64,000 nt of DNA, taken from Candidatus Acidiferrales bacterium (GTDB lineage: Bacteria > Acidobacteriota > Terriglobia > Acidiferrales > UBA7541). Shown here piece after piece: positions 36,508 through 55,147 of the stretch. Each line of letters begins with the position of its first letter. The first letter of the stretch is position 1. Below the pieces are notes generated by a model. It did not search any database. It was not told the origin of the DNA and saw nothing but the letters and a program-made list of their open reading frames with translations. The stretch is from NCBI GenBank assembly GCA_049787175.1, contig JBAQYT010000135.1, forward strand, positions 2,548 through 66,547, in the 5' to 3' direction. The position numbers were made by a program, and so were the translations under genes.

Positions 36508-36514
36508 GCGCCGG

Positions 36515-38521: not shown

Positions 38522-38594
38522 TGGCCAGCGCCTCCCCATGCCCTGCGCGCAACATTGCTCTTCCCGACTGAAAGCCGTTCAGAAAAACGAGAAT

Positions 38595-38936: not shown

Positions 38937-38978
38937 GGACTTCTCCTTGGATGGGCCTGAATATCCGTAATCCCTGAA

Positions 38979-38994
38979 TGCAAAGCATGGACCA
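38979..38994 (-). promoter_or_regulatory. Sigma-54 (-24/-12) promoter candidate for the TonB-C/MCP/che operon
   Basis: The minus strand reads TGGTCCATGCTTTGCA against the consensus TGGCACG-N4-TTGCW. GG and GC have the exact spacing, and the -12 element TTGCA is complete. The element ends 42 nt upstream of the GTG start. A sigma-54 activator is encoded 2.6 kb away. Confidence 0.55.
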
Positions 38995-39484
38995 GTTCCG
39001 ATGCTGCAATTATTCATGCAGGCGGGAGCCTCGACGAGTTCGTAAGACTAATAGAAACAGTAACTTACAATTTAACATGGACTACAGCCTCGATGCCGTG
39101 CTTTGGCCATTTCGTCTCATCCGCCTGGCGATACCTGTGTAAGCGTCTCATGTTGAGAGACGGAGCTGGCAGCGACTGATACATAGTTCAGCAACTCGCG
39201 CGGCGCACTTGTTGACTCAAAATGAGATGGAGGGCTACCGTTGAAGTGTTTCTCAAACTTCAAGATTGGCGCGCAGGCCCCCTAGTCTCCATGCGTGCAC
39301 GGTTGCGGTTCAGAGTCCTCTCGTCTAGCGACGAAGGCAGCGTCGAGCGCCTTCTTGCACAGTTGTGCATTTTCGCCCGCCATCGCAAGGCGCAAGATTT
39401 GGTTTCCTTTGTTTGCCGCACTACAAAAGCCTTTTTCTGGATCGACTGGGCGCGCTATAGGCGGATGGAGTGCGAGTGGCCGTC

Positions 39485-41500
39485 ATGAAGAAGCACGCCA
39501 AAAGGAGCGCATCCGCGCCGAATTCCATCCGGTCCAGGCGCAGAGAAGCGACCGCGGACGACGCCGTGGAGCTTCGAGCGCGAAGCTTGATGAATCTGGC
39601 GCTGGAGCTGAAGCCATCGCTGCGCCTGCCAGAATTTGTTGGCCGGTTCACCTGTCGAGCGGGAGAAATTCTGGGAGCACGAGCGGCGATCCTGGCGCTC
39701 ACTCGCGGCACGCAACTCGAAACGGTTCTTGCGAACGATTTGCGCGGTCCTGGCCGCGAGCTTGACTGGCCAAGCCTGAATGCCGCTCTCACGAAGCTTG
39801 TCCAAGAGTATCAGGAACCGATTCTATTGGGTTCTGCAACAGCACTTCTCGGAGCGTCTCTGGCGCGCAGCTTTGGATGGCATGATCTTTGTTTCGTGCG
39901 CCTGGCCGGGACGGAAGGCGACCTTTTGGGCGCCCTCTGCCTGGTCGACCGCGCGAAAGATCTGTCCGATGCAGACCGAAACTTAGTGCAGGCGCTGGCC
40001 GGGCACGCTTCCGTCGCGTTGGAAAATTCGCGGCTTTTTTCGCGTATCGAACACTCCAAACGGCAGTGGGTTGAAGATTTCGACGCGATCAGCGACCTGA
40101 TCGTGGTTCACGATCCTAGCAATGTGATCTTGCGAATCAATCGTCCCCTTGCCGATGCGGTGGGTTCGCGGCCGTCCGAACTGGTTGGGAAAAGTACGCG
40201 AGCACTCAGTGGCATCGCCGCGGATTCGTCCGTTCTCGCTTGCCCGTTTTGCCGGGAGTCGGAGCATACAGCGGAAGAGTCTGTGTTTACATCGGGCGCC
40301 CGCGCGTTCCTGATTTCCACGTCGCGGATCGGTTCGGGAGAGGAAGGCTCGCGCACGATCCATATCTTGAAAGACATCACCGAACAGCGCCGGTATCAGA
40401 CACAGCTTCAGCGCGAGCGCGACTTCAATACCAAAATACTTAACAATACACAGAGCATGATTCTGGTGCTCGATACGGCCGGCTTAGTCAGCTATGCCAA
40501 CCGGCGGTGCTATGAATCCGGTTACGCCAAGGAAGACCTGCTCGGCCGCGCGTTCGCAGAATTCATTCCGCGAAACCGACGGGGGCAATTCGATCGGACT
40601 TTTGAGAGCGCACTTCGCGGAGTGGCTTCGGAAAACATGGAGCTTCCGGTGCTGCGCGGGAATCGCAGCACCGGGCAATTCTCCATCAGCCTGAGCCCCA
40701 TGCGCGATGAGCAAGGGCACGTCAACAGCATCGTGGTTGTGCTCGCCGATATCACGGACGCCGCTGTTTTGCAGGCGCAGCTCCGGCACAGCGAAAAAAT
40801 GGCCGCCGTCGGCCAGCTCGTTGCCGGCGTGGCTCACGAAATCAATAATCCGCTTGCGGCGATTGTTGGGTACTCGGACCTGCTTCTGGAAAACACCAGC
40901 GTGCCGGAATCGGCGAAGGAGGAGCTGCGCATCGTGCTGAAGGAAGCGGAGCGCACAAAGGAAATTGTGCAAAATCTCCTGCGATTCGCGCGGCAAATGC
41001 CCGCCAAGCGTGAAGCTCTAGACATTCATGGTGTTTTGCGTCAAGTGCTGCAATTGCGCACGTATGGCGCCACGGGCGATGGCGTGGAAGTGATCGAGCG
41101 CTTCGACAAGCTGGTTCCGCAGGTTTTCGGCGATGGGCACCAGTTGCAACAGGTGTTTCTGAATATTCTGAATAACGCCTATGACGCGATTCGCGAAGCT
41201 TGCCGCGCCGGCAAAATAGAGATTGCCACGCGTGAACGCAACGGCGTGGTGGAGATCGCGGTGCGCGACAATGGCATCGGCATTTCCGATAGCGCGCGAA
41301 TTTTTGAGCCCTTTTACACAACGAAAGAAGTCGGCAAAGGAACCGGTTTGGGACTGAGCATTTGCTACGGCATCGTGAGAGAACACGGTGGCGATGTGAT
41401 TTGCGAAAACAATGCCGATGGGATGGGATGTACATTTTTTGTCCGGCTTCCGGCGGTTAACGCCGCGGAAACGGCTTCGGTGGCGGGTACGACCCGTTAG
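39485..41500 (+). CDS. Sensor histidine kinase (GAF - PAS - PAS - HisKA - HATPase_c), soluble
   Basis: 'AVGQLVAGVAHEINNPLAAIVGYSDLL' (H-box), 'NILNNAYDA' (N-box), 'DNGIGI' and 'GTGLGLSICYGIV' (G-boxes). No TM helix is seen. The start is uncertain (ATG 39485 or GTG 39470). Confidence 0.85.
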   Translation: MKKHAKRSASAPNSIRSRRREATADDAVELRARSLMNLALELKPSLRLPEFVGRFTCRAGEILGARAAILALTRGTQLETVLANDLRGPGRELDWPSLNAALTKLVQEYQEPILLGSATALLGASLARSFGWHDLCFVRLAGTEGDLLGALCLVDRAKDLSDADRNLVQALAGHASVALENSRLFSRIEHSKRQWVEDFDAISDLIVVHDPSNVILRINRPLADAVGSRPSELVGKSTRALSGIAADSSVLACPFCRESEHTAEESVFTSGARAFLISTSRIGSGEEGSRTIHILKDITEQRRYQTQLQRERDFNTKILNNTQSMILVLDTAGLVSYANRRCYESGYAKEDLLGRAFAEFIPRNRRGQFDRTFESALRGVASENMELPVLRGNRSTGQFSISLSPMRDEQGHVNSIVVVLADITDAAVLQAQLRHSEKMAAVGQLVAGVAHEINNPLAAIVGYSDLLLENTSVPESAKEELRIVLKEAERTKEIVQNLLRFARQMPAKREALDIHGVLRQVLQLRTYGATGDGVEVIERFDKLVPQVFGDGHQLQQVFLNILNNAYDAIREACRAGKIEIATRERNGVVEIAVRDNGIGISDSARIFEPFYTTKEVGKGTGLGLSICYGIVREHGGDVICENNADGMGCTFFVRLPAVNAAETASVAGTTR

Positions 41501-41552: not shown

Positions 41553-42959
41553 ATGTCCAACGATTTGCGTATCCGATTTTTGGTGGTTGACGATGAGGCT
41601 TCCATTCGGAAGTTGTGCATGACGATCGGTGAAAAGCTCGGCTTTGCGGTCTCGGAGGCGGAAAATGCGGAAGCCGCGCTGGCTTTGGTGGAGGCGCATT
41701 TGCCGGAAGTGGTTATCGCAGACCTGAAATTGCCGCAGATGAGCGGGGTCGAGCTGCTGCGTCAGATCAAGCATCTTCTTCCCGCCACTGAAGTGGCCAT
41801 CATGACGGGCCACGGCACCGTAGAATCAGCGGTCGATGCCATGAAACTGGGCGCATACGATTACATCGAGAAACCTTTTCGTGTCGAGAAACTGCGATCC
41901 CTGCTGCAGCGCATGGCGGAAAAAGTGAGCCTCGTTGCCGAGAATCAGTTTCTGCGGGAGCGCATGGACGCGGAGACGCGCCTGGATGGTATTGTCGGGA
42001 CGTCCACAAAAATCCAGGACGTGCTGCGCATGGTGGCGCGGCTGAAAGATTCACCGGCTCCTGTTTTGATCGTCGGCGAAAGCGGGACGGGCAAAGAACT
42101 GGTCGCGCGCGCCATCCATTTTCGCGGGCCTTTGGCGCAAAGGCCTTTCGTCGCCGTTGATTGCGGCGCGCTGGTTCCCACTTTGATGGAAAGCGAGCTC
42201 TTCGGCCACGAAAAGGGCGCTTTCACCGGAGCGCTCAAGTCGAAGGCGGGCCTCTTCCAGGCGGCGAATGGTGGAACAATATTTCTGGACGAAATTGGCG
42301 AGCTTCCCCTGGAAATGCAGGCCAAACTGCTGCGCGTGCTGCAAGAGAAGGAAGTGCGACCGGTCGGCAGCAACGAAAGCGTCGCCGTGGACGTGCGCGT
42401 GATCGCGGCGACCAACCGAGATCTGGAAGCAGCGTATCGCGCCGGCGCATTTCGGAAGGATTTGTTCTTCCGGCTGAATGTGGTGATCGTGCACATGCCC
42501 GCATTGCGCGAACGCCGCGCGGACATTCCCGTGCTGGTGCGGTCCTTTCTGGAGCGCCACGCCGCCGGCGAAAACGTTCAGATCAGTGCAGCGGTGATGA
42601 AAGCGTTCCTGCAGTACGATTGGCCCGGCAACATTCGAGAACTGGAGAATTGCATAGCCCGTGCTCTGGCTTTGGGCGACCGGCAGTCGATTGGGTTGAA
42701 CGATCTTCCGCCTGCGCTTCGCTCCAGCGAAGAAACGGACTTTTCAACCGAGGACTCTCGGGTGCTTGCTTCCACGGCCCTTGCCGACATGGAGCGCATG
42801 ACGATCATTCGCGTTTTCGAGCAAGTGGGCGGCGATAAGGCGCTGGCCGGCAAGATGCTTGGAATCAGCCGCGCGACGTTGTATCGCAAACTGAAGCTGT
42901 ATCAGATTCCACTGCGGCAGTCCCGGAAGATGGTTGCGGCCGCAGCGCCGGAGCAGTAG
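41553..42959 (+). CDS. Sigma-54-dependent response regulator (REC - AAA+ - Fis HTH; NtrC family)
   Basis: REC 'FLVVDDEASIRK...VIADLKLPQMSG'. Walker A 'GESGTGKE'. Sigma-54 contact loop 'GAFTGA' in 'EKGAFTGALKS'. 'FRKDLFFRLNV'. C-terminal HTH 'AAGKMLGISRATLYRKLK'. Confidence 0.93.
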   Translation: MSNDLRIRFLVVDDEASIRKLCMTIGEKLGFAVSEAENAEAALALVEAHLPEVVIADLKLPQMSGVELLRQIKHLLPATEVAIMTGHGTVESAVDAMKLGAYDYIEKPFRVEKLRSLLQRMAEKVSLVAENQFLRERMDAETRLDGIVGTSTKIQDVLRMVARLKDSPAPVLIVGESGTGKELVARAIHFRGPLAQRPFVAVDCGALVPTLMESELFGHEKGAFTGALKSKAGLFQAANGGTIFLDEIGELPLEMQAKLLRVLQEKEVRPVGSNESVAVDVRVIAATNRDLEAAYRAGAFRKDLFFRLNVVIVHMPALRERRADIPVLVRSFLERHAAGENVQISAAVMKAFLQYDWPGNIRELENCIARALALGDRQSIGLNDLPPALRSSEETDFSTEDSRVLASTALADMERMTIIRVFEQVGGDKALAGKMLGISRATLYRKLKLYQIPLRQSRKMVAAAAPEQ

Positions 42960-43115
42960 TGCTTTCGCAGCATTTGTCTCACGATGGCCAGCACGGCGCA
43001 CCAGTTAGTGAGACATTTTCGTCGCAGGGTGAGACATGCAAGAGATTGCCCGTGCGACGCCTTCCGTAATTGCCGCAATTCCAACGAGTTGAGTTTCCTC
43101 CTGGTGTCCCCGCTT

Positions 43116-43131
43116 TGGCCGCACGCGTGCT
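43116..43131 (+). promoter_or_regulatory. Weaker sigma-54-type promoter candidate upstream of chemosensory operon 2
   Basis: TGGCCGCACGCGTGCT has GG and GC at consensus spacing; -24 matches 4/6 and -12 is GTGCT against TTGCW. It ends 76 nt upstream of ATG 43208. A chance match is plausible in GC-rich DNA. Confidence 0.3.
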
Positions 43132-43207: not shown

Positions 43208-44992
43208 ATGACCAAGCTTGCTGGAAAATCCGTCCCGCCCGAACAGGCGACTCCGTCGCTGAGCGAAAAAGCGGAAGCGATCGCGGGCGCTTGGGCCGAA
43301 GCCCGGCTCGTTTATCCGCTTTTTTTCTATTTGGCCACACACTTCCACTTGGCGATTCCGCCTATTCATGATGCTGCGCTTCCTGCCGCTTGTCCCGCTA
43401 CGGAACTATTCGAGCAAGTGATTTGCTGGCTCGACGAAATGGATGCGCAAATCCGGACCAATCAGTTGCGGCAGCTCTTGCACTCACTCAAAGACGTGAG
43501 ACCGGAGAGCTTGCGCGCGCTGATCTTGCGCTTGCTGCGTCACGCCGAAAAATCGGCGACCGATCGCGATAATATCGACCTGCTGCTCGCGACGTATTTC
43601 GCCCTTTGCGCTCCTGAAGATTTGTATGCCTGCGAAATTACGCTTGCCGATGTGGCTCAGGTCCTGCAGAGCGTTCTCGCCGATGCGGATCCCACGGAAC
43701 TCGAATGGTGCGGGCCCCTCAATCAAGTGCTCGATGCGATGAAAGAATGCAGGGGGCTGCGCGAAGTATTTGCCGCGAAACTGCTGGAGAAAGGGCGCGA
43801 ACTGAAGGATGCGGCCGGCTTCATGTTCTATGATCCGGCAGCCCTGGTGGCATTCACACGATTCAATTTTCTGTTGCGCCGCTCGTTTTTCCGCTTGCTC
43901 CACGCGGACTTGCGCGCGATTCGCGAAGGCCTGACCGAGCTTGAGCGCCGCGGCATTTCCACAGTCGATTGCCGCACTGCGGGACTTACTCAACAGGAAC
44001 CCGTGGCGCACCTGCGGGAGATTTCGCTCGCGTGGCGCCAACCCATATCCGCCGATTATGCGGCGGAATCCGCGAACCGAACCTTCGAGCAGCTTCTTAC
44101 TATCCGGGCCGCAGTCGAGCGCGCACTAGGGATCTTACCGGTCGAAGTTAAAGTGCCGGTGATCGGCTCAATTCCGTCGACGGAAAAGCCAAAATCTGTT
44201 TCTGCGCCTCCTGAGCAGCAACCTGTGCCGCGGCAGGCGCACGAATCGAGCGAGAGGCCTACGCCAAAGCCGCGAATTGTCACGTTGCCCAATCGCAATG
44301 AGGCGTCTTCGACGGAGGTTCGTGGCAGCGTGCCATTGCCAGGCGAGCAACCTGTTCGAATTCCTGCGGCGCCAATGGGCCCAACGAAGCCAAGCACACC
44401 AGCAGCACGTTTGCCGGATCATTTGTCAGATCAGGCGCCAGGGCAAGCGCCGGGCGCGGAAATCAAGCCGTCGCTGGCGTCCACTTTGCGGCCAGCGCCT
44501 CCCGTTTCCGCGCTGGCTGACTCTCCTGCGCCACCTGTTGAGCGCGCCGCGATTTCCGGGACTCGCACTGCACCGCCGATGAGCGATGTCCTTTCCCCGG
44601 ATCTGGAAAAGTGCCTCGAAGGCATTTGGGAACAATTGATTGAGGCGCCGCCTACGCGAGGCCGTTCCATGAGCACGGTGACCCTCGGCGATGCCAGGAT
44701 CTTGCTATCTGCATGGGAAGTAAACGCGTTCGTCAGCGACGGCGGACAGCTTTCGGAAGATCTTCGCCGTGCGGTAGCCGCGCGTGCCTTGGTTGCACTG
44801 GCGCGCCAGGAAGAGAAAGTATCTGGCGATCGCACAAAACTCAACGACGCCGTGGCTTTGGGTCGCGAGGAAATGAAGTATTTGCAAGGGCGCGTTGACC
44901 AAGCGCAGCGGACGAAAAACACGGAAGCGGCGGTGAATCTGGGCATCAGCGCCCGGCGCCTGCTTTCCACGATCGAAGAAGCGCAGACGTAA
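43208..44992 (+). CDS. 594-aa orphan protein (helical N-domain, ~150-aa Pro-rich linker, helical C-domain), first gene of chemosensory operon 2
   Basis: Long ORF with the codon bias of its neighbours, followed 58 nt later by the REC gene. I recognise no known motif. The central region 'PSTEKPKSVSAPPEQQPVPRQ...PAPPVSALADSPAPPVE' is low-complexity. Confidence 0.6.
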   Translation: MTKLAGKSVPPEQATPSLSEKAEAIAGAWAEARLVYPLFFYLATHFHLAIPPIHDAALPAACPATELFEQVICWLDEMDAQIRTNQLRQLLHSLKDVRPESLRALILRLLRHAEKSATDRDNIDLLLATYFALCAPEDLYACEITLADVAQVLQSVLADADPTELEWCGPLNQVLDAMKECRGLREVFAAKLLEKGRELKDAAGFMFYDPAALVAFTRFNFLLRRSFFRLLHADLRAIREGLTELERRGISTVDCRTAGLTQQEPVAHLREISLAWRQPISADYAAESANRTFEQLLTIRAAVERALGILPVEVKVPVIGSIPSTEKPKSVSAPPEQQPVPRQAHESSERPTPKPRIVTLPNRNEASSTEVRGSVPLPGEQPVRIPAAPMGPTKPSTPAARLPDHLSDQAPGQAPGAEIKPSLASTLRPAPPVSALADSPAPPVERAAISGTRTAPPMSDVLSPDLEKCLEGIWEQLIEAPPTRGRSMSTVTLGDARILLSAWEVNAFVSDGGQLSEDLRRAVAARALVALARQEEKVSGDRTKLNDAVALGREEMKYLQGRVDQAQRTKNTEAAVNLGISARRLLSTIEEAQT

Positions 44993-45050
44993 ACAGTTAG
45001 TTGGCTCGGCTGGCGGAGTTGTTGCCGTGGCCTTGTCCCGGGAGGTTTAT

Positions 45051-45413
45051 GTGTTGAAAAAGGTTCTTGTCGTCGACGACTCCGTTGCAGCCGTGAAAAT
45101 GATGCAGGGAATGCTCGAGCAGGGCGGCTATGTATCTGTCGGCCTGAGCGATCCACTGCGGATCGAAGAGGCTATCACCACGGAGCATCCCGGTCTCATT
45201 CTTCTGGATGTGGTCATGCCGCAGCGCAACGGTTTTCAAATCTGCCGCGACCTGAAAGGGAACACATTGTTTGGCGGTATTCCTGTGATTCTGGTCAGTT
45301 CGAAAAATACCTCGAGCGACAAGTTCTGGGGACAACAGCAAGGCGCGGACGCGTATATTGCCAAGCCTTTTACCGCCGAGGAACTCTTGGAAACGGTGCG
45401 GAGATTTGCCTGA
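45051..45413 (+). CDS. Single-domain response regulator (PilG/PilH-like position)
   Basis: 'VLVVDDSVAAVK', 'LILLDVVMPQRNG', 'VILVSSK' and 'YIAKPF'. GTG 45051 has GGAGG 5 nt upstream; the track ORF begins at an in-frame GTG at 45027. Confidence 0.85.
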   Translation: MLKKVLVVDDSVAAVKMMQGMLEQGGYVSVGLSDPLRIEEAITTEHPGLILLDVVMPQRNGFQICRDLKGNTLFGGIPVILVSSKNTSSDKFWGQQQGADAYIAKPFTAEELLETVRRFA

Positions 45414-45988
45414 TGCTTGATGATTACAAGCCGGACCACAGCTTCGAACAGGAGCGTGAGCTCGCCGCCATCGAGCCTGATAGCGGCGAGATGCTCGATT
45501 TTCCAGAGACGATCGAGCCGTTCGATGCGGCTTCGCTTAGCGAGCGCAGCCCGGAGAGCCAGTACTGCGTGTTTCGCGCGGGCCGCGAACGTTTTTGCCT
45601 TTCTGTTCTTGCGATTGAAGAAGTCGTGGGATGGCCTCCGGTGACACGGGTTCCGCTCGCCCCGTCGTTCTTGATGGGTGTTTTCAACTTGCGCGGCTCC
45701 ATTGTTCCGCTGGTTGACATTGCCTTCACCGAAGGCCGCCGGGCCGGGCTGCTGCCGCGACACGTGGTCGTTGCAGCATTGCGGGACGATGCCAGCGCAA
45801 CCAATCTTCGTTTCGGCATTGCCGCCGACGAAGTGATCGGTACTTACACTGCGGCGGACGACTCGCTGCTTGACCAAATGCCCAGCGAGATTCCGCATTG
45901 CCGCGGCATGCTGCGTCACGATGACCGCCTGGCGCTGGTGCTCGATTTAAAGAAAATGATCGAAGTATTTCCGGTGCCCGTCATATGA
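45413..45988 (+). CDS. CheW-like coupling protein (PilI-like position)
   Basis: 'YCVFRAGRERFCLSVLAIEEVV', 'GVFNLRGSIVPLVDI' and 'LRFGIAADEVIG'. The start overlaps the preceding stop (TGATG). Confidence 0.8.
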   Translation: MLDDYKPDHSFEQERELAAIEPDSGEMLDFPETIEPFDAASLSERSPESQYCVFRAGRERFCLSVLAIEEVVGWPPVTRVPLAPSFLMGVFNLRGSIVPLVDIAFTEGRRAGLLPRHVVVAALRDDASATNLRFGIAADEVIGTYTAADDSLLDQMPSEIPHCRGMLRHDDRLALVLDLKKMIEVFPVPVI

Positions 45989-46063
45989 GCTCGCAGGGAT
46001 CGCATTGTTTTGAATACCGCCGCTTTGGACGCGGCCATCAAGCTTTTCGATTTGGAGGATGTT

Positions 46064-47518
46064 ATGAAATCGCGTCTTAGCTCGACCATCTGGACCTTAA
46101 TTCTGTGGGATGCGGCCGCGCTCGGCGGAGTTCTCGGCCTCGCGTTCCATGCAGGCGCCGCAGCGAGTGGGCAGTCGTTCGCCAATTTTTCGGCGCTTCC
46201 GAGCGGGGCGTCGACAAGCCTGCTTTGCGCCGGGGGGCTGGCGATTGCGACGTTTCTGCTGCACGTGATCCTGCTGCCGAAGCGCGTGATCGCGCCGCTG
46301 ACAGAACTCGCGAGCTTTTCCGAGAAGCTCGCGGCTGGCGACGCTCGCGCGAAAGCGGAGATTGCGTCGTCGGATGAGTTCGGCTTTATCGCTGAGAATT
46401 TGAATCGTAGCGCGGCGAAAGTGGCGCGTTCGTCGGTGAGCCAGGAAGCGTCAGAATCATTGCAACGGAGCATCACTGACCTGCTCAACTTGATCAATCA
46501 GGTTTCGCGCGGCGATTTGACGATGCGCGGCAGAGTGACCAACGATGCGCTTGGCAACGTCACTGACTCGGTGAACTTGATGCTCGACAATTTCACGAAA
46601 GTCATCGAGCGCGTTCGCAAAGCGGCGATCGACGTCAACAACAGCGCCGGACACATTCTGTTTGCCGCCGACGAAATGACCACGGGCGCAACACAGCAGG
46701 ACCAAGAAATCACTAATACTTCGTCAGCCGTGGAAGAGCTGACGGTGTCGATGAAACAGGTGTCGAACAACGCCGAAGCCAGCGCGGAAGCCGCACGGCG
46801 CGCGCTGGACGCCGCGGAACAGGGCAACCGCGCCGTCCGCGACACACTCGAGGGCATGCAGCGCATTCGTGCTTCGGTGCAAGCGACGGCCAAGAAAATC
46901 AAATCGCTTGGCGACCGTTCGCTGGAAATTTCGGAAATCATCAATGTGATCAACGACATTACGGAACAGACCAACCTGCTGGCGCTCAACGCCGCCATCG
47001 AAGCAGCGCGCGCGGGCGAGGCGGGCCGCGGGTTCGCGGTGGTCGCCGACGAAGTTCGCAAGCTTGCCGAGCACTCACGCAGCGCGACAAAGGACATCGC
47101 GGCACTGATCAAAGCCATTCAGGCCGAGACGAACGAAGCGGTGGTCGTCATGGAAGAAGGCACAAAGGAAGTGGAAGTCGGCGCCAGCCTGGCCGATCAA
47201 GCGGGAAAAGCGCTGGAAGCGATCTCCAGTGTCGTACGCCAATCCGCCGAACTCGTGCAGGAGATTTCGCTAGCCTCGAAACAACAGGTGCGAGGCACGG
47301 AAGGCGTGGCCAACGCGATGCAAATTATTTCCGGAATCACGCGGCAGACTTCGCAGGGGGCGCGGCAAACGGTGGCGACGGTGGGCGACATGGTGAAGCT
47401 CTCCGAACAGTTGAATGAAGCCCTGGCTCAGTTCCGCTCCGGATCGAAAAATGGTTCAGAGACTGCGGCGGCCGACGAATCCCGGTCCGTACCGGTGCCT
47501 ATAGGTGCCCGCCGCTAG
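46064..47518 (+). CDS. Methyl-accepting chemotaxis protein with minimal extracytoplasmic loop (PilJ-like position)
   Basis: Two TM helices separated by about 25 aa, then HAMP ('[18 protein letters not shown]...[10 protein letters not shown]') and an MA domain ('[38 protein letters not shown]'). ATG 46064 has GGAGGA 4 nt upstream; the track ORF starts at TTG 46010. Confidence 0.9.
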
Positions 47519-47552
47519 GCATTCGATTGTGATTCACTAACGCGCGCCGAAT

Positions 47553-48431
47553 ATGAAACATATTGCAACTGCTTCGATTACGGATTACGAGCTCGATGAG
47601 ATTCGTACGCTCATTGAGCGACGCTCCGGCATTTTGTTCGATGCGTCGCGTGAACGGTTTTTCTCGACACGCATTCGCGAACACATGGCGGCAAGGCATT
47701 TCGCGCACGGCACAGACCTGCTTCGCAAGCTGCATGACTCGAATGTTGAATATGACACGCTGGTCGAGCGCTTGCTGACGCAGGAGACTTCCTTTTTCCG
47801 CTATCCGGCAGTTTTCGAGGCCTTTCAGAGAAAAGTTCTTCCCGAACTACACATGAAGAAATTCTGGGAGAACCCGAGGTCTTTGCGGGTGTGGAGCGCC
47901 GGGTGCGCCACGGGAGAAGAGCCCTATTCCATCGCCATTTCGGTGGCAGACGCACTGATGTTTTCCGAAGCGTGGAACGTTGAGATCCTGGCGACGGATA
48001 TCAGCAAGAATGCACTGAAATACGCGCAGCAAGGCGTGTATTCCCGCAGAAATATCGGCCATCTTTCTCCGCGCCAACTGGATGCGTATTTTACCGCCTC
48101 CGGCAATGAACACGTCATCAAGCCGCGCGTCCGCCGCATGGTTTCGTTCGCGCCCATGAACTTGGCGCAGGCCGTGTACCTCGGACGCCTAGATTGTATT
48201 TTCTGCATGAACGTCATGATCTACTTTTCGGAGGCGCGCAGGAATTCGTTGATCCAGCACTTCTACGAATATCTCGAGCCCGGCGGCTATCTGTTTCTCG
48301 GCCATTCGGAATCCGTTTCGAATGTTCCGGTAAAGTTTGAGGCGGTTGTCTGCGGGGACTGCATTCTTTATCGCAAGCCAGCGGGCGAAATGATTTATCG
48401 CGGCGCGGCGCTCGTGGAAGGTGCCCTGTGA
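47553..48431 (+). CDS. cheR: CheR-type protein-glutamate methyltransferase (PilK-like position)
   Basis: 'ETSFFRY', 'VWSAGCATGEEPYSIA' and 'CIFCMNVMIYF'. Confidence 0.9.
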   Translation: MKHIATASITDYELDEIRTLIERRSGILFDASRERFFSTRIREHMAARHFAHGTDLLRKLHDSNVEYDTLVERLLTQETSFFRYPAVFEAFQRKVLPELHMKKFWENPRSLRVWSAGCATGEEPYSIAISVADALMFSEAWNVEILATDISKNALKYAQQGVYSRRNIGHLSPRQLDAYFTASGNEHVIKPRVRRMVSFAPMNLAQAVYLGRLDCIFCMNVMIYFSEARRNSLIQHFYEYLEPGGYLFLGHSESVSNVPVKFEAVVCGDCILYRKPAGEMIYRGAALVEGAL

Positions 48432-51427
48432 GCGATCCTGGAAAAGGCGCAATCGAAGTCTTTCTGCAGGAAGCGTCTGAGCACCTGCAATTCCTGCGGG
48501 AATACGCGAGCATCCTGCAGGAGCCGCAGCCCAATCCCGAGAATCTCGAACGGCTGTACATTGCCGCGCATACGCTCTCCGGCACTTCGGCGACCTACGG
48601 ATTTCCGCTGTTCTCGGAAATCTCAGGCAAGCTCGCGCATATTTTTCAGTACACGCGCAACGCGCCTCTCAACTCCGACACTATAGCGCCTCTCACGGAG
48701 TTTCTCTCTGACGCCATCTCCGTTCTCGAATTCGATCTGCTCGAAATCAGCGACTCCGCCATGGAAGTGGCATTGGACATTCAAGCATTCAAGCAGCGCT
48801 ACGCCTTCGCATTTCCTGCGGCTGCACCTTCTTCCCCGGTTGAAACCGCCATCGCCAGCACTTCGGGAGAGGCGGCGGATTCGGTGCCGCATCCGACTCA
48901 AGAAACTACTTCGCATTATGACTCCTTGCCGCACGATGATGAGGTTGCCGACGAAGTCCTGCAGTTTTTCGTTCCTGAAGCCGAGGAACACCTCCAAACC
49001 GTTACGGAATGCCTGCTCGCGCTGGAAACAAATCCGAGCCCCGAAGATGTAAACCGGCTGTTTCGGGCCATGCATACGGTCAAGGGCTCGGCGGCTCAGG
49101 TTGGCCTGCACCGTATTTCCGCGATCGCCCATCGCGTCGAAGATTTGATTGGGCAGGTTCGCGATGGCATTCTTGCCCCTGGTGCCGAACTCACCGATCT
49201 GTGCCTGGAATCCGCGGACATTTTGAAGAAGTTCTTGCATCACCAATGGCACAGCGAAGCCGACGCTCGCACAGCGGTCGACCTGCTGCTTTCACGCATT
49301 TCTGAATTTCTGCCGGAGGAAACAGACGTCCCGACGCCGGCGGATTCCGTGGAAAGCGCCATGGTTCAAGCTGCTGTTGAGGGAGCGGGCCTCGCCCATT
49401 CCACCGACCCCGCGCACAGCGATGACGCGGCCGCTGAGGCGTCCAAGCTCTCTCCTGTGAATGCGCCCCAGCTGCACTCTGTCCGCATTTCACTGGAGCG
49501 TTTGGACAAAATGATGAACGCGGTCGGCGAACTGGTCATCAATCGCACGCGCATGATCGGCCGTCTGGCCGAGCTTGAGAAGCTCGTCGAAATCTTGAAT
49601 TTCTCCAAGTCTCGCCTGGGAGAGAAGATTTCCGGATTTCAAGACAAGTACGAATTCCGATGGGTCGGAGCGCAGTCTACGTCGCTTTCTTCAAATGTGA
49701 GTCCGCAACATGCCTCCAGGGCGCCTTCCGACAATCGCCATGATCCGTTTAGCGAATTCACCGAACTCGAGATGGATCGGTACGATGATTTCAGCATTCT
49801 CTCCCGTTCCCTGGCGGAGATTTCCGCCGACGTAAACGAGGTTCTCGCGCAGCTCGGCGGCTTTATGGGCCGCGTCGATGCGGATATCGATGAATTTACG
49901 AAACTGGCGCATCACCTTCAGGATCAGATTACGCAGGCGCGGATGGTTCCGATCGGCAATCTGTACACGCGCCTGTCGCGGACGGTGCGCGATGCCGCGA
50001 AGATGTCAGGCAAAGAAATCGACTTCGTTCTGGACGGCGCTTCCACAGAACTTGACAACAACATCATTCAGCAGATTTCCGATCCGCTGATTCACATTGT
50101 CCGCAATGCCGTTGCACACGGCCTGGAAATGCCGGAGGAGCGCGCGCAGCAGGGCAAGAATCCTCGAGGGCGCATCGCTGTGCGCGCCTATCACCGCGGC
50201 AATCACATTTTCATCGAGGTGGAAGACGACGGCTGCGGCATCGATGCGGAGAAGGTTCGCGCCCGCGCCGCCGAATCCGGATTCGTTTCCGCCGAGCAGG
50301 CGCGTCAGATGAACGACCGCGAATTGCGCAATCTCCTCTTTTTGCCCGGATTTTCCACGGCCCACGAAAAGACCGAACTGGCCGGCCGCGGCGTGGGCCT
50401 GGACGTCGTCAAATCGAATCTGGATGCGCTCAATGGCGAAGTGGAAATACGCACCGAAGTTGGACAAGGCTCTTGTTTCACGCTGAAAGTTCCGCTCACG
50501 CTGATTATTTCACAGGCGCTCTTCGTTCGTTGCGGCGCATCGCTTTTTGCTTTGCCGCTTGGCTTCGTCGAGGAAATTCGGCGTTTGCGTCCCGAGGAGA
50601 TTGAGGATGTCGGCGGCAAGCTGCTCACAAAAGTTCGCGATGAGATTATCGACGTGGTTCGGCTCGACGCGCGTCTAGGCCTTCCTCTGCTCGAAACAGT
50701 GAACGGTTATTTTCGGATGGTTATCGTCAAAGTCGCGGGGCGGCGCGTTGGCTTGGTGGTGGACGAAGTCCTGCGAAAAGACGAAGTGGTCATCAAGAAT
50801 CTTGGGGGCTTCCTTCGCAACATCAGGCTTTTCCCCGGCGCGACGATTGCCCCTGACGGAAGTTTGATTCTTGCCATCGACTTGCATCGGCTGGTCGCCC
50901 TGGAACTCTCCGAGCACGCCTCGATCAGCGCCACGGCCGCGGCAGCGCGGGTGTTCGCGCCGGGGGCCGCAGCGGTTGCGTCGGGCAGCATTCCCGCGGA
51001 GGCGATTGACGAAGTTCAGAGCGAGCGCGTGGTTGTCGTCGTGGATGATTCCATCAGCGTGCGCAAATTCGTCGGCAGGATGCTCGAGAAAGCCGGCTAT
51101 CGCGTGCTGCTTGCTTCTGACGGTCTGGAGGCGACAGAGCTTGTGGCGCAATCGGGCGCGCATTTGATCATCACCGACCTCGAAATGCCACGCATGAATG
51201 GATACGAGCTGATGAGCCATTTGCGCCAGAATCGGGAAACGCGCCGGATTCCGACGATGGTCGTTACCTCGCGCGCCGGCGCAAAACACCGCGACCGCGC
51301 ATTAAAGGAAGGCGCGGTGGCATTTCTCACAAAGCCCGTACAAGAGGAACAGTTGCTTGCGGCCGTGGCGTCGATTCTAGGAGTGGAGAAGGCGGGGCTG
51401 CGTCACCGGCCCGTGCCTGTTGGCTGA
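48428..51427 (+). CDS. Hybrid CheA-type histidine kinase: 2 x Hpt - dimerisation - HATPase - CheW - REC (ChpA-like)
   Basis: Hpt1 'AAHTLSGTSATYGF' and Hpt2 'AMHTVKGSAAQVGL'. 'HIVRNAVAHGLE', 'DDGCGID' and 'GRGVGLDVV'. CheW-like domain. C-terminal REC 'VVVVDDSISVRK...IITDLEMPRMNG...FLTKPV'. GTG start overlaps the cheR stop (GTGA). Confidence 0.93.
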   Translation: MSDPGKGAIEVFLQEASEHLQFLREYASILQEPQPNPENLERLYIAAHTLSGTSATYGFPLFSEISGKLAHIFQYTRNAPLNSDTIAPLTEFLSDAISVLEFDLLEISDSAMEVALDIQAFKQRYAFAFPAAAPSSPVETAIASTSGEAADSVPHPTQETTSHYDSLPHDDEVADEVLQFFVPEAEEHLQTVTECLLALETNPSPEDVNRLFRAMHTVKGSAAQVGLHRISAIAHRVEDLIGQVRDGILAPGAELTDLCLESADILKKFLHHQWHSEADARTAVDLLLSRISEFLPEETDVPTPADSVESAMVQAAVEGAGLAHSTDPAHSDDAAAEASKLSPVNAPQLHSVRISLERLDKMMNAVGELVINRTRMIGRLAELEKLVEILNFSKSRLGEKISGFQDKYEFRWVGAQSTSLSSNVSPQHASRAPSDNRHDPFSEFTELEMDRYDDFSILSRSLAEISADVNEVLAQLGGFMGRVDADIDEFTKLAHHLQDQITQARMVPIGNLYTRLSRTVRDAAKMSGKEIDFVLDGASTELDNNIIQQISDPLIHIVRNAVAHGLEMPEERAQQGKNPRGRIAVRAYHRGNHIFIEVEDDGCGIDAEKVRARAAESGFVSAEQARQMNDRELRNLLFLPGFSTAHEKTELAGRGVGLDVVKSNLDALNGEVEIRTEVGQGSCFTLKVPLTLIISQALFVRCGASLFALPLGFVEEIRRLRPEEIEDVGGKLLTKVRDEIIDVVRLDARLGLPLLETVNGYFRMVIVKVAGRRVGLVVDEVLRKDEVVIKNLGGFLRNIRLFPGATIAPDGSLILAIDLHRLVALELSEHASISATAAAARVFAPGAAAVASGSIPAEAIDEVQSERVVVVVDDSISVRKFVGRMLEKAGYRVLLASDGLEATELVAQSGAHLIITDLEMPRMNGYELMSHLRQNRETRRIPTMVVTSRAGAKHRDRALKEGAVAFLTKPVQEEQLLAAVASILGVEKAGLRHRPVPVG

Positions 51428-51431
51428 AACC

Positions 51432-52547
51432 ATGAATGCCGCCACAAAAAAGATTCGTGTGCTGCTGGTGGACGATTCGTCCTTCATGCGCAAAGTGCTG
51501 CACGGCATCGTCAGCGCCGATCCTCAGATGGAAGTCGTCGGCCAAGCCAAGGATGGAAACGAAGCGATCGCCATGGCGCAATCGCTCAAACCCGACGTGA
51601 TCACCATGGACATCAACATGCCGCACATGGATGGTTTGCAGGCGACCGAACAGATCATGTCGCAGAATCCGAAGCCGATTGTCATTGTCAGTTCGGAAAC
51701 GCGCGACGGCGCCTCAAGCACGCTGGCCGCTTTGGAGCTAGGCGCGATTGATTTCATTTCCAAGCCTTCCAGCGGCATCGACCTTGACATGAATTCAGTG
51801 GGCGCCGATCTGAATCGCAAGTTGAAGATGGCGGCGAAAGTTCACGTGATACGCACTGCGGCGCGACCGAAGCTCCGTGCTGGCGCAGCGCATCGGTCTG
51901 CTCCTTCGGCCGTCTCGACTGAGCACGCCGGCTCCGCTGGTGTGGCAGGTAGTCGCTTCCCCCTGGTGGTGATCGCCGCTTCCACGGGCGGGCCAGCGGC
52001 GGTCATGCGTCTCGCGGCGGATCTTCCGAAGGATCTTCCCGCTGCAGTTGTATTGGTTCAACACATGCCCGCGAGCTTCACCAGCCAATACGCTATCCAG
52101 CTCGCCGACGCGACGGAAATCGAAGTGAAAGAAGCCTCAGCGAATGAAGCTCTCGCCCCCGGCATTCTCTACGTTTGCCCTGGCTCGCACCACCTGCGCA
52201 TTTCGCCGAAGGGACGCATCGTGCTCGATAGTGGAGCGCGTATTTCCGGGTACCGCCCCTGCGCCGATGTCGCGATGGAAACTGCGGCCGGCTGGACCGG
52301 GCCAATAACCACAGGCGTGGTTCTCACCGGCATGGGCAATGATGGTTCGCGCGGCGCTCAGGCAATTTATTCCGCTGGGGGGGCGGTTTTCGTTCAGGAC
52401 GAGGCGACTTCGGTCATTTTTGGAATGCCTGCGGAGGTTATTAAAACGGGGTTTGTAAGCCAAGTTCTTCCACTGGATCAAATTGCCGCGGCGATTGAAA
52501 AACGCGTGCGCCAACTCGCCAGCGCTCCACAGACTGTGCTGCCATGA
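51432..52547 (+). CDS. cheB: CheB-type methylesterase (REC + catalytic domain; ChpB-like position)
   Basis: 'VLLVDDSSFMRK...TMDINMPHMDG', 'VVIAASTGGPAAV', 'VQHMPASFT', 'YRPCADVAM' and 'VVLTGMGNDGS'. I chose ATG 51432; the track ORF uses an in-frame TTG at 51420. Confidence 0.9.
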   Translation: MNAATKKIRVLLVDDSSFMRKVLHGIVSADPQMEVVGQAKDGNEAIAMAQSLKPDVITMDINMPHMDGLQATEQIMSQNPKPIVIVSSETRDGASSTLAALELGAIDFISKPSSGIDLDMNSVGADLNRKLKMAAKVHVIRTAARPKLRAGAAHRSAPSAVSTEHAGSAGVAGSRFPLVVIAASTGGPAAVMRLAADLPKDLPAAVVLVQHMPASFTSQYAIQLADATEIEVKEASANEALAPGILYVCPGSHHLRISPKGRIVLDSGARISGYRPCADVAMETAAGWTGPITTGVVLTGMGNDGSRGAQAIYSAGGAVFVQDEATSVIFGMPAEVIKTGFVSQVLPLDQIAAAIEKRVRQLASAPQTVLP

Positions 52548-53101
52548 AAATCGCGCCGAGCGAACCGCGGCCAGGCCGCCACTCTTCTCGCAGCGAGCCG
52601 GTGATACTTTTCTCCATTGCGGGCCAGATGTTTGCGATCAATGCGAACGCCATTCAGGAAATCCGCACCACGGACAGCATTTCGGCCGCCGCTTCCGAAG
52701 TTTCGGCTGGCGGCATCGCGAAAGTGCGCCATCGCTTGCGGCGTGGCCACAAGACTTTTCACGTGGTAAATGGTTGCGTTCATTTTGGGTTGGCAACGTC
52801 GCGCCCGGCGCAGGTTGTGGTCCTGCGAAATCATCGCATCGCTGTTCTCGTGGACTCCATCGATCGGATGGAGACGATGTCGTTCCTTATGGCCCTGCCA
52901 CCCGGATTCTGTGGCCCCGAGCGTTTGTGGTATCGCGGAATAACCTTAGTTGCTGAAAATGTTGTTCCGGTCGTAAGCCCGTCAGGATTTTTGACGGAGC
53001 AGGAACTCGCGCAATTGGACGCAGCAGCGGCGGAGGCTGACATTGCCGCAGAGGCCGCTGTTCAAGCGACACATCAGGCGCCCGCGGAGCATCCTGAATG
53101 A
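52544..53101 (+). CDS. Divergent CheW-like domain protein (ChpC-like position)
   Basis: 'ILFSIAGQMFAINANAIQEI', 'VVVLRNHRIAVLVDSIDRM' and 'GITLVAENVVPVVSPSGF' follow the CheW pattern. Ala/Glu-rich tail. ATGA overlap with cheB. Confidence 0.65.
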   Translation: MKIAPSEPRPGRHSSRSEPVILFSIAGQMFAINANAIQEIRTTDSISAAASEVSAGGIAKVRHRLRRGHKTFHVVNGCVHFGLATSRPAQVVVLRNHRIAVLVDSIDRMETMSFLMALPPGFCGPERLWYRGITLVAENVVPVVSPSGFLTEQELAQLDAAAAEADIAAEAAVQATHQAPAEHPE

Positions 53102-53577
53102 CCGTCGCGGTCGAAACTCCCACAAAATCTTTTGTTCTCTTGCCGTTGGGCAACCGTCGTATTGCCTTTGCGGCGGACTCCGTCATCGAACTGACCGCGT
53201 TTGAGAAGCTTCAGCATTTTCCGCACGGCACGCCGTGGATTTCCGGCGTGCTTGTGCGCCGCAACCGCGTGGTGCCGGTCTGCGATGTCAGCAAATTATT
53301 CGGCGAAGAGGCGCTCTCGGTGGGCCGTTTCTATTTGATCGCGGAATGGCAGGAGCACGGCGTGCGCGACTGGTGCGCCATTCCGGTCGCCGGAGAATGC
53401 GAACTAGCGTCTGCCGAATCGGTGCTGCCCGTCGTTCCCCAAACGAGCGTGCGGCCCTGGTTCGTTACCGGGCTCATATCCGTCGCCGGCGAAGAGATAG
53501 AAGTCGTCGACTTGACCAAACTCATTCAGGCGCGCCGCGTGGCGCTCGGAAGTCCCGCTGTGGAGCCTGCGTCATGA
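53098..53577 (+). CDS. Second divergent CheW-like domain protein
   Basis: 'FVLLPLGNRRIAFAADSVIEL', 'WISGVLVRRNRVVPVCDVSKLFG' and 'GLISVAGEEIEVVDLTKLI'. ATGA overlaps at both ends. Confidence 0.65.
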   Translation: MTVAVETPTKSFVLLPLGNRRIAFAADSVIELTAFEKLQHFPHGTPWISGVLVRRNRVVPVCDVSKLFGEEALSVGRFYLIAEWQEHGVRDWCAIPVAGECELASAESVLPVVPQTSVRPWFVTGLISVAGEEIEVVDLTKLIQARRVALGSPAVEPAS

Positions 53578-54419
53578 GCGTCGCCGTGGCGCTGCCGAAA
53601 ATTTTACTGATTGACAGCAACGTGTATTTTTCCAAAAAACTCAGTGATGCATTGAAAACGGAAGGCTTCGAAGTGGTCACGAGCTCCCAAGCTGCATACG
53701 CACTCACCATGCTCGAATGGAATCGCCCGGCGGCTGTGCTTTGCGCAACGAATCTTCGCGAAATGAGCGCCTACGAGATTGCGCCGATTCTGCGCGCGGA
53801 TTCGAAAACCGCCGCGATTCCTATCATTGCCGTGGGCAATGGCGGAGATCAGGCGCTCATGGAGGCGTTTCGTTCCGGCTGCGACGACTATGTGGATCGC
53901 CGCTGCGCGCCGGACGACATCGCCGCGCACGTGCGCGCATTCCTCCTGAGCCGCCAGGAAGGATTCCAGCCGACGCAAATGGTCCCGAGCTCCATGGCCA
54001 CGCTTACCGGCGACCTGTCTCGCATGGACTTGCCCGGCGTGATTCAAATGCTGAATCAGGCTCGGCAGACCGGCGCCCTGAATATCAATGCGGGGGACAC
54101 GGACGGCGTCATCTACTTCGACGGCGGCGAGCTGTCGCATGCGGAGTGCGGCGTGCTTTTCGGGGATGAAGCAGTCATTCATATTCTCAAGTCTTGCGAA
54201 GGCGCCGGCAAAGGCGTCTACAAATTTGTATACGGCACCACTGCCACGCATCATACGGTGCTGCGTTCGGCCACGGACCTAATGCTCGATGCCATGCGCG
54301 AGCTGGACGAAGCAGCCCACGAAGCGGAATCCAGTGAAAGCGGCGGGGAAGTATCCGAGCCGCAGTCCGGGAATCCATCAGAGAGCGGCCCCGATAAAAT
54401 CGAATGGGAGCGGCCATGA
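53574..54419 (+). CDS. Degenerate receiver domain fused to a DUF4388 (PATAN-type) domain
   Basis: The N-terminal REC fold 'ILLIDSNVYFSKK...' has 'AAVLCATNLREMSAYE' where the phospho-acceptor Asp should be, and 'DRRC' instead of KPF. The C-terminal 'LTGDLSRMDLPGVIQMLNQARQTGALNINAGDTDGVIYFDGGELSHAECGVLFGDEAVIHIL' fits the DUF4388 pattern. I chose ATG 53574 (ATGA overlap); the track ORF start at 53235 is an Arg-rich artefact. Confidence 0.65.
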   Translation: MSVAVALPKILLIDSNVYFSKKLSDALKTEGFEVVTSSQAAYALTMLEWNRPAAVLCATNLREMSAYEIAPILRADSKTAAIPIIAVGNGGDQALMEAFRSGCDDYVDRRCAPDDIAAHVRAFLLSRQEGFQPTQMVPSSMATLTGDLSRMDLPGVIQMLNQARQTGALNINAGDTDGVIYFDGGELSHAECGVLFGDEAVIHILKSCEGAGKGVYKFVYGTTATHHTVLRSATDLMLDAMRELDEAAHEAESSESGGEVSEPQSGNPSESGPDKIEWERP

Positions 54420-55147
54420 GCGAAACGCCCGAAACTGTTACGGAAAAAGTGCCTACGGTTTACTTCATCGATGACAGCGCCACGATGCGCGAAGTCATCA
54501 AGATCGCCTTCCGGCGCGAGTCGATGAACGTGATCACCTGCCGCGATGCTGCTTCCGCGTTGGCGCAATTCAACGAAACGGCTCCCGATGCCGTCATCAC
54601 CGATGTGATCATGCCGGGCAAAGACGGCTACGAAGTCTGCCAGTTCATCAAGAAGGACGCCAATCTTGCGAAAACGCCGGTGATTTTGATGTCCGGCGTT
54701 GTCGATCGAACCGTTGCCGAAAAGGCCATCGCCGCATGCGCTGATGAGCTGATTCGTAAACCGTTTCAGCCGCAGGAGCTGATTACGCGCGTCAGAAATC
54801 TGCTCAATCCGAAGCCACAAGCCGCTCACGCAAAGGAGCCATCTGCGAGCGCTGAGGCGCGCCCTGCCGCTGCGGCATTGTCGGGAATTTTCGCCATGCC
54901 GGCTGAGCCCGCGCTGGCAGTGGTGCGGCCTGTTCCTGCGATTGCGGGGAGCCAGCGGCCCGCCGTTTCCACCCCGGCGTATTCTTCGCCCCGGCCTGCT
55001 GCGACGTCAGGCGAAATTCAGAAGCTGCGCTTTGAGATTCAGCGGCTCGAAATGCTCGTCAAGAAGCTTCAGTCGGACCTCGAAGCCGAGCGCCAATATG
55101 TTGCCTCGCTCGAATTGCACATGCGCACCCTCCAGGAAGCCGAGTGA
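54416..55147 (+). CDS. Response regulator: canonical REC + Ala/Pro-rich linker + C-terminal coiled coil
   Basis: 'VYFIDDSATMRE', 'AVITDVIMPGKDG', 'VILMSGV' and 'LIRKPF'. A linker 'PKPQAAHAKEPSASAEARPAAAA...' follows, then the heptad-like 'EIQKLRFEIQRLEMLVKKLQSDLEAERQYVASLELHMRTLQEAE'. ATGA overlap with the preceding gene. Confidence 0.8.
   Translation: MSETPETVTEKVPTVYFIDDSATMREVIKIAFRRESMNVITCRDAASALAQFNETAPDAVITDVIMPGKDGYEVCQFIKKDANLAKTPVILMSGVVDRTVAEKAIAACADELIRKPFQPQELITRVRNLLNPKPQAAHAKEPSASAEARPAAAALSGIFAMPAEPALAVVRPVPAIAGSQRPAVSTPAYSSPRPAATSGEIQKLRFEIQRLEMLVKKLQSDLEAERQYVASLELHMRTLQEAE

Follow-up and report, generated by a model that had tools for sequence, protein, structure and literature searches.

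The stretch of DNA analyzed here, called the window throughout, is the whole 64,000 nucleotides taken from contig JBAQYT010000135.1 of a Candidatus Acidiferrales bacterium (assembly GCA_049787175.1, positions 2,548 to 66,547), and at window positions 43208-55147 it carries an eleven-gene chemotaxis-like signaling operon of uncultured soil Acidobacteria, all on the forward strand (Table 1). Eleven co-directional genes are borne out by the open reading frame (ORF) listing and by Pfam scans, and six of the junctions between them, read on the sequence, are overlaps (one CTGATG, one GTGA and four ATGA), the number given in the original prediction, which had been made from the letters of the window alone. 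Pfam also confirms the core order claimed there, namely receiver (REC), CheW, methyl-accepting chemotaxis protein (MCP), CheR, hybrid CheA, CheB and CheW, and the extra CheW-like gene is real in that two weak but above-threshold CheW matches follow CheB. Where the prediction fell short was in extent: its eleven genes stand, but a kinase/activator gene pair, a sigma-54 promoter and a second che cluster had been missed, and the conserved unit comprises 13 genes, beginning upstream of the operon at a histidine kinase gene (39470).

The components of a chemosensory pathway are all present, with MCP, CheW, the P3-P4-P5 portion of CheA, CheR and CheB each above the Pfam gathering score. The MCP has two transmembrane (TM) helices joined by a loop of ~18 amino acids (aa) and no periplasmic sensor domain, and its signaling domain is 27-28 residues longer than those of the E. 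coli MCP models, matching P. aeruginosa CtpM in length. Since E. coli receptors belong to the 36-heptad class, this excess fits a 40-heptad receptor. Neither GGDEF, EAL nor any other enzymatic output domain was found by Pfam in the operon proteins.

Table 1. Positions of the conserved unit (upper rows) and of neighboring features (last five rows) in the window
Feature	Position	Strand	Basis or remark
Soluble histidine kinase (GAF-PAS-HisKA-HATPase), start of the conserved unit	39470..41500	+	Pfam
NtrC-family sigma-54 activator (REC-AAA+-HTH_8), receiver intact	41553..42959	+	Pfam; residues compared with CheY
Upstream-activator-like site TGAGAC-N6-GTCGCA-N3-TGAGAC	43009..43035	+	~80-110 bp 5' of the -24 element
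Sigma-54-type -24/-12 promoter element TGGCCGCACGCGTGCT (GG-N10-GC)	43116..43131	+	77 nt 5' of the ATG
594-aa protein, first operon gene	43208..44992	+	no Pfam or NCBIfam match
REC1, single-domain phosphorylatable receiver, PilH/PixH-like	45027..45413	+	Pfam; DD/D/S/K intact
CheW1 (PilI position)	45413..45988	+	Pfam CheW 86 bits; TGATG overlap with REC1
HAMP-MCP	46010..47518	+	Pfam; TM segments 27-48, 66-97
CheR methyltransferase	47553..48431	+	Pfam CheR 190 bits
Hybrid CheA, 999 aa: Hpt (His48), Hpt (His216), extended P3, P4, P5, C-terminal REC (869-980)	48428..51427	+	Pfam
CheB methylesterase, receiver intact	51420..52547 (TTG 51420 or ATG 51432)	+	Pfam; NCBIfam above cut-off
CheW2, divergent, ChpC position	52544..53101	+	Pfam CheW 31.8 bits, cut-off 23.5
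CheW3, divergent	53098..53577	+	Pfam CheW 45.5 bits; N-terminal half only, profile positions 2-64 of 138
Pseudo-receiver + PATAN (DUF4388), 281 aa	53574..54419	+	Pfam PF14332 56.5 bits, cut-off 25
Last gene: PilG-like phosphorylatable receiver, variable Ala/Pro-rich linker, C-terminal heptad-repeat helix of ~40 aa	54404..55147	+	Pfam
Second, canonical che cluster: CheX, CheY, CheB, 701-aa CheA with P2, CheR, CheW, CHASE3-HAMP-MCP	30895-38539	-	Pfam
Small TonB_C-domain protein in the gap separating the two che clusters; its gene diverges from that of the kinase	38595-39017	-	same position in L091
285-aa protein beside the canonical che cluster, PilZ-domain matches in two stretches	30055-30912	+	Pfam
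ABC exporter, then 1583-aa GT2 + glucoamylase-like protein; resembles cyclic beta-glucan synthase/exporter pairs	21577-28242	+	
619-aa ORF, homocysteine S-methyltransferase fused to methylenetetrahydrofolate reductase	16515-18374	-	

Conservation and the upstream control region

A scan with the CheA over one genome per species returned 535 relatives, the best 80 of which (CheA identity 63-97%, nearly all labeled Acidobacteriota) were compared by tblastn with 14 window proteins as a test of synteny. As far as each contig extends, all 80 loci have a single order on a single strand: kinase, activator, 594-aa gene, REC1, CheW1, MCP, CheR, CheA, CheB, CheW2, CheW3, REC-PATAN and the receiver with a coiled coil (REC-cc). 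The kinase gene is colinear in every locus that reaches it, and in the relatives the operon invariably has the 594-aa gene in first or second place. The original prediction had staked its claim on the accessory genes being syntenic with the che core, and in every relative examined they are. At a CheA identity of ~64%, the MCP (76-81% identical to the window protein), the activator (71-75%) and the PATAN protein (62-75%, among the best-conserved operon proteins) are well retained, the 594-aa protein (41-57%) and CheW2 (43-54%) less so, and CheW3 (35-49%) evolves faster than any other operon gene. The whole arrangement is also kept in L091 and L094, metagenomic loci of greater distance in which the 594-aa homologue is ~33% and CheA ~60% identical. 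Close relatives of the 594-aa and PATAN proteins number in the thousands, and the named ones come mostly from metagenome-assembled genomes of 'Candidatus Acidiferrales/Acidoferrales' (Acidobacteriota), where they are labeled 'hypothetical protein' or 'DUF4388 domain-containing protein'.

L091 (7492-7905, 9642-10004, 11822-12475) and L094 (2565-2975, 6455-7135) also have additional genes in the unit: a stand-alone REC separates the kinase gene from the gene of the sigma-54 activator, a protein of 217-226 aa that matches HisKA weakly lies 3' of the 594-aa homologue and, in L091 only, a 120-aa ORF is found between the promoter and the 594-aa homologue. Relative to these two loci, the window version of the unit looks like a reduced form.

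The 594-aa gene is preceded by a gap of 248 bp, inside which lies the -24/-12 promoter element; no sigma-70-like site was found in a scan upstream of the operon. Of 68 orthologous intergenic regions, 63 have the pattern TGGC-N8-TGC[AT] at the matching position; the spacer varies, and TGGC and TGC[AT] are fixed. Further upstream, the TGAGAC composite site, which is accompanied by an additional GTCTCA half-site near 42977, is unique in the window (0 expected by chance) and present in nearly all aligned upstream regions, and the AT-rich stretch separating it from the promoter is likewise conserved. L091 retains both repeat and promoter, and L094 retains a TGGT variant of the element. The adjacent activator is 71-98% identical across the 80 loci, and the kinase has no hydrophobic segment; for this pair NCBIfam offers no equivalog, none reaching the cut-off for the activator. 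The locus thus has the three marks of a sigma-54 operon, a GG-N10-GC element, upstream repeats and an adjacent activator gene, and these signals in the DNA suggest that the operon is probably switched on by the neighboring sigma-54 regulator.

Signaling proteins, leader protein and neighboring genes

The CheA combines two histidine phosphotransfer (Hpt) domains and a C-terminal receiver with the lack of any Pfam match to a P2 domain. This architecture is a feature of the type IV pilus (Tfp) class and is found in the alternative cellular functions (ACF) class too (PMC10782961). In the underlying survey of 13,673 CheAs, 93% of multi-Hpt CheAs were Tfp or ACF (PMC10782961), multi-Hpt CheAs mostly carried a C-terminal REC (PMC10782961) and dimerization domains reached their greatest length in Tfp CheAs (PMC10782961). 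The window protein has an extended P3 as well, ~100 residues longer in alignment than in four flagellar-type CheAs. The extension carries the motif F-x-x-L-E-[MF]-D-x-Y-x-x-[FL]-x-x-L-[SA]. Among reference clusters, which were obtained by tblastn of the CheA against plasmid and chromid records and then from the annotation of those records, the motif is present in a Deinococcus CheA, a cyanobacterial Tax-type CheA and Acinetobacter ChpA and occurs in degenerate form in a ChpA-like protein of a P. aeruginosa megaplasmid; it is absent from the CheAs of E. coli, Sphingomonas, Chondrinema and Gemmatirosa, from the window's own canonical CheA and from a Mesorhizobium Wsp-like CheA.

The two stand-alone phosphorylatable receivers point in the same direction. 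REC1 scores 116 bits (43% identity) against Deinococcus REC1, 97 against a cyanobacterial PixH-like protein, 83 and 79 against Acinetobacter PilH and PilG, and 48-53 against flagellar CheYs, while the receiver of the last gene scores 89 bits against D. radiodurans REC-X, 83 against Acinetobacter PilG and 47 against E. coli CheY. Within this small reference set, REC1 and the last receiver make up a PilG/PilH-type pair, a feature of the Tfp class. The last gene, which probably starts at ATG 54416 and so gives an ATGA overlap, has active-site residues invariant in 70 orthologues, and its C-terminal segment, made of heptad repeats as the claim of a REC-coiled-coil protein required, is conserved.

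The catalytic set of residues, judged against E. coli CheY, is kept in REC1, in the receivers of CheA, CheB and the last gene, and in the upstream NtrC-type protein. The receiver fused to PATAN is dead, as had been predicted, with S15, A58, G88 and R109 aligned to CheY D13, D57, T87 and K109. Because 76 orthologues show little or no variation at these four positions and the remainder of the domain is strongly conserved, we regard it as a selected pseudo-receiver and not as a decaying gene. It is weakly similar to the receiver of FrzS (E ~1e-6), itself a pseudo-receiver with a coiled coil. Structure modeling of REC-PATAN, on a shallow alignment, gave a confident fold for the receiver and pLDDT 35-60 for the PATAN half; a sequence search of the PDB matched receiver domains alone and returned no solved PATAN structure, and NCBIfam has no equivalog for any accessory protein. 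A tblastn search of plasmids with REC-PATAN gave only generic receivers outside Deinococcus and one unannotated Streptomyces record.

The operon's leader was described in the original prediction as an orphan, which it is not: it belongs to a family of more than 2000 clusters at 90% identity, and a profile search of 1.8 billion representatives found 564 members at the 50% identity level. The protein consists of an all-alpha N-terminal domain (~18-306), a disordered Pro-rich linker (321-460) and a C-terminal helical domain with a beta hairpin (464-593), and its AlphaFold2 model (mean pLDDT 70) has both folded domains at 85-95 on either side of the linker of ~140 residues. No structure in the PDB matched its fold at E below 0.1; what the search returned (14-3-3, TPR and designed helical repeats, E >= 0.17) was noise. 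Of four family members whose contexts were viewed, those in L091 and L094 belong to a che unit and P0389 and P0367 do not. At L093 1325-2977 and on the contig with P0367, distant members (~190-215 bits to the profile) have unrelated neighbors, none of them a che gene. The family thus extends beyond chemosensory operons. With two folded domains on a long disordered linker, the protein is probably a scaffold or localization factor, speculative as this is.

Other genes of the window lie outside the unit. The canonical che cluster is 4.7 kb upstream of the operon and stays adjacent in the distant L091; because this adjacency is kept, the two che clusters and the kinase/activator pair may form one conserved supercluster. 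The PilZ-domain protein beside the canonical cluster has no NCBIfam match at E <= 1e-20. Window positions 1-13400 hold a polysaccharide biosynthesis cluster (Wzy_C, GT1, WecG/TagA, two epimerases/dehydratases, UDP-GlcNAc 2-epimerase and an initiating sugar transferase) with a GC content of 0.48-0.53 versus 0.57-0.60 elsewhere, and this cluster may have been acquired horizontally.

Proposed mechanism and competing explanations

Sequence comparison leads us, with moderate confidence, to interpret the operon as a Tfp-like system, one of the pilus type whose PatA-like output is split. We infer the link to pili from the CheA, a P2-less protein that joins two Hpt domains to a lengthened P3 and a C-terminal REC, from its shared P3 motif, and from the receivers, whose resemblance to PilH, PilG and PixH exceeds that to CheY. 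The likeness to Pil-Chp that had been proposed for the operon was thus largely right, holding for gene order, for the multi-Hpt, P2-less CheA with its motif and for the PilH/PilG/PixH-like receivers.

Several observations weigh against this interpretation. A neighbor-joining tree of the CheA core (416 columns, 15 sequences, 200 bootstraps, 10 reference CheAs from plasmid and E. coli records) is star-like and does not place it in a class, with deep bootstraps of 8-34%, and raw distance places the core slightly nearer to flagellar CheAs. As had been predicted, neither pilus nor flagellar genes occur among the Pfam-scanned ORFs, which cover 0.7-60 kb of the window, and no pil genes are among the called genes of L091 and L094 either, so that a genomic link to type IV pili was not found. 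The MCP is without the periplasmic domain of the PilJ type. Although it contains a PATAN domain, the REC-PATAN protein is not strictly a PatA-type regulator, since its domains come in the reverse order, its receiver is dead and no PATAN insertion is seen. On the side of regulation, the window contains 10 matches to the -24/-12 pattern where ~6 are expected, so that by itself this pattern is not rare, and the adjacent NtrC-type regulator could be an output of the pathway and not its transcriptional activator.

Under the pilus-type interpretation, one could envision the locus as a 13-gene unit in two parts, a regulatory pair and an 11-gene chemosensory operon. Conserved DNA and adjacency suggest that the GAF-PAS kinase phosphorylates the NtrC-type activator and that the latter, most likely by binding at the TGAGAC repeats, turns on the sigma-54 promoter; expression would then be confined to the condition that the kinase senses. 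Going by domain content, the membrane MCP, the three CheW proteins and the hybrid CheA would form an array to which CheR and CheB give adaptation. By homology, the two Hpt domains of CheA would pass phosphate to four receivers, namely its own REC, which may act as a phosphate sink, and those of CheB, REC1 and the last protein. The products of the last two genes, which are translationally coupled, would amount to a split PatA-type regulator in which the PilG-like receiver works with the pseudo-receiver-PATAN protein, and by analogy with PixG and PixE the target of the PATAN domain may be PilB/PilC, the motor of the type IV pilus, or else a polarity module whose genes lie elsewhere in the genome.

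Only tentatively do we put forward a broader possibility: that this tail pair, a pseudo-receiver-PATAN adaptor and a PilG-like coiled-coil receiver, is a split PatA-type output common to Acidobacteriota and Deinococcota, marking an old, unrecognized PATAN branch of pilus-type systems that links cyanobacterial Tax and proteobacterial Chp; that the 594-aa family is a new kind of scaffold or polar hub; and that the module is deployed conditionally through a dedicated kinase, enhancer-binding protein and sigma-54 switch.

Alternatively, the operon could follow an ACF design like that of Che3/CrdSA, in which the pathway and the GAF-PAS kinase would both modulate the NtrC-type regulator, the output would be sigma-54-dependent transcription and the operon promoter would represent autoregulation. 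This could account for why, in every locus, the genes for the kinase and the NtrC-type regulator are colinear with the operon, and it has a precedent in M. xanthus, where the hybrid-CheA system Che3 and the kinase CrdS jointly regulate CrdA, an NtrC homologue (PMC3147164); multi-Hpt hybrid CheAs, moreover, occur in the ACF class too (PMC10782961). However, Che3 has no CheY (PMC3147164), whereas two live stand-alone receivers and a PATAN protein are strongly conserved here; the Deinococcus homologues retain receivers and PATAN, while the annotated flanks of both their loci are without a kinase or NtrC-type gene; and an activator site and sigma-54 promoter directly 3' of an activator gene are the usual mark of an activator controlling the operon. 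Because the live CheY-like pair and PATAN are kept and the Deinococcus flanks lack such a regulator, we rank this design below the pilus-type interpretation and consider it unlikely, although the two are compatible and not mutually exclusive.

We give less credence still to an ACF-type system that would govern exopolysaccharide, biofilm or another surface property, as Dif and Wsp do, through contacts of the PATAN and REC-coiled-coil proteins with a non-pilus target. The lack of pil genes, the presence of the polysaccharide cluster and the glucan-synthase-like pair in the same window and the star-like CheA tree would all suit such a system, and part of the supplementary tables of PMC10782961 gives ACF-class CheAs in Deinococcus and Acidobacteriota, which in those entries are different, shorter proteins. 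Yet the operon has no GGDEF, EAL or other enzymatic output domain, the Wsp-like CheA does not have the P3 motif, and the polysaccharide genes are 30 kb off, differ in GC content and lie outside the flanks compared among relatives, while the functional data on PATAN proteins cited in bioRxiv 10.1101/2021.06.11.447907 (PixG, PixE and M. xanthus SgnC) all indicate pili or social motility.

A flagellar chemotaxis system, or a redundant paralogue of the canonical che cluster, is very improbable: the proximity of that cluster, kept even in L091, and the marginally smallest raw distances of the CheA core to flagellar CheAs are outweighed by a CheA architecture (two Hpt domains, an extended P3 and a C-terminal REC, with P2 lacking) that differs from the Hpt-P2-P3-P4-P5 of its neighbor, by receivers much closer to PilG and PilH than to CheY, and by the absence of flagellar genes from the scanned ORFs of the window.

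Conserved across the relatives examined down to ~60% CheA identity, the operon is probably the main non-flagellar chemosensory pathway of Acidiferrales and their relatives, which recur in sampled peat, forest and soil metagenomes and among which none of the carriers found is cultured. Its tail pair offers a natural experiment in which a PATAN output works apart from the phosphorylatable receiver, its upstream region adds a clear example of a chemosensory operon with a probable sigma-54 switch of its own, and its leader gene defines a large protein family without a fold match in the PDB. Since D. aetherius and D. radiodurans carry homologous clusters, the model can be tested in cultured Deinococcus. 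The findings bear on chemosensory and pilus regulation and on the biology of Acidobacteria and hold no categorical surprise.

Relation to known chemosensory systems

Three characterized systems can be set aside as direct counterparts. M. xanthus Che3 resembles the locus in being a hybrid-CheA system linked to a kinase and an NtrC-type regulator (PMC3147164), and the adjacency and synteny of those genes hold here; by definition, however, the operon is not of the Che3/CrdSA type, since it encodes two live CheY-like proteins where Che3 is without CheY. It is not Wsp-like, as none of the 13 proteins has a GGDEF domain and the Wsp-like reference CheA does not carry the P3 motif, nor is it Frz-like, as there is neither a double receiver like FrzZ nor a cytoplasmic receptor like FrzCD. 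At the level of single proteins, the last gene resembles RomR in having a receiver, an Ala/Pro-rich linker and a conserved C-terminal tail; RomR itself consists of a receiver, a Pro-rich linker and a Glu-rich RomR-C tail with an invariant Trp and Pro (PMC3441718), and because the conserved tail of the window protein contains neither the Trp nor the Pro of RomR-C, orthology was rejected.

With the cyanobacterial Tax1/Hmp/Ptx systems (PixG-PixH-PixI-PixJ-PixL) the operon shares a PATAN protein and a CheY-like receiver beside a hybrid CheA with an extended P3. PATAN response regulators are an established output of cyanobacterial pilus chemosensory systems (bioRxiv 10.1101/2021.06.11.447907; PMC11181946); in Synechocystis the PATAN output domain binds PilB1 and PilC (bioRxiv 10.1101/2021.06.11.447907), and PATAN genes are found repeatedly near MglA/MglB genes (PMC4316618). 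The cyanobacterial regulators have the order PATAN-REC, a live receiver and a PATAN insertion, whereas here the order is REC-PATAN, the receiver is dead, no insertion is seen and the live receiver is a separate neighboring protein. The alpha-helical insertion is judged absent in that the 122-position profile spans 103 residues here and 160 in the cyanobacterial protein, with a low-confidence model of this region. CheR and CheB, present here, are absent from the cyanobacterial cluster that was compared.

The Deinococcus clusters (D. aetherius pDAETH-1 and D. radiodurans) consist of REC, CheW, MCP(s), a two-Hpt hybrid CheA, a degenerate-REC-DUF4388 protein and a protein with REC, a Pro-rich linker and a C-terminal domain. 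Their CheA is colinear with the window CheA over residues 18-977 (31% identity, 382 bits), and because the clusters end with the same pair of REC-PATAN and REC-X, this tail pair is common to two phyla. The last protein of D. aetherius has at its C terminus a sub-threshold Roadblock/LC7 match where the window protein has a coiled coil, and as annotated the Deinococcus clusters contain no CheR, CheB, CheW2, CheW3, 594-aa gene or adjacent NtrC-type gene. At D. aetherius L082 4876-6177, a gene for a periplasmic ABC substrate-binding protein is inserted between CheW and MCP, which hints at indirect ligand sensing in that lineage. We found no description of the Deinococcus or the acidobacterial cluster in the literature. 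Even so, to call the operon an undescribed signaling system, as the original prediction did, is too strong, and its output is not as open as was claimed, because PATAN regulators are an established output of pilus systems and the tail pair recurs after a colinear hybrid CheA in Deinococcus.

The closest parallel in gene order is the Pil-Chp system of Pseudomonas and Acinetobacter (pilG-pilH-pilI-pilJ-pilK-chpA-chpB-chpC), in P. aeruginosa a setter of pilus polarity through the antagonistic pair PilG/PilH (PMC10519157). Both have the succession REC, CheW, MCP, CheR, hybrid multi-Hpt CheA, CheB and CheW, an extended P3 with the LE[MF]DxY motif, two live stand-alone receivers resembling PilH and PilG, and an MCP whose signaling-domain length is consistent with a 40-heptad receptor. 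In contrast to Pil-Chp, the PilG-like receiver stands here at the end of the operon and bears a linker and coiled coil, the CheA has only two Hpt domains, and the unit adds a third CheW, the PATAN protein, the 594-aa leader and probable sigma-54 control, with no pil genes nearby. The operon is distinguished by its split PATAN/PilG-like output, its third CheW, its 594-aa leader gene and its putative dedicated sigma-54 switch; among known systems it most resembles those that steer type IV pili, and it is an uncharacterized version of a known design rather than a new sort of system.

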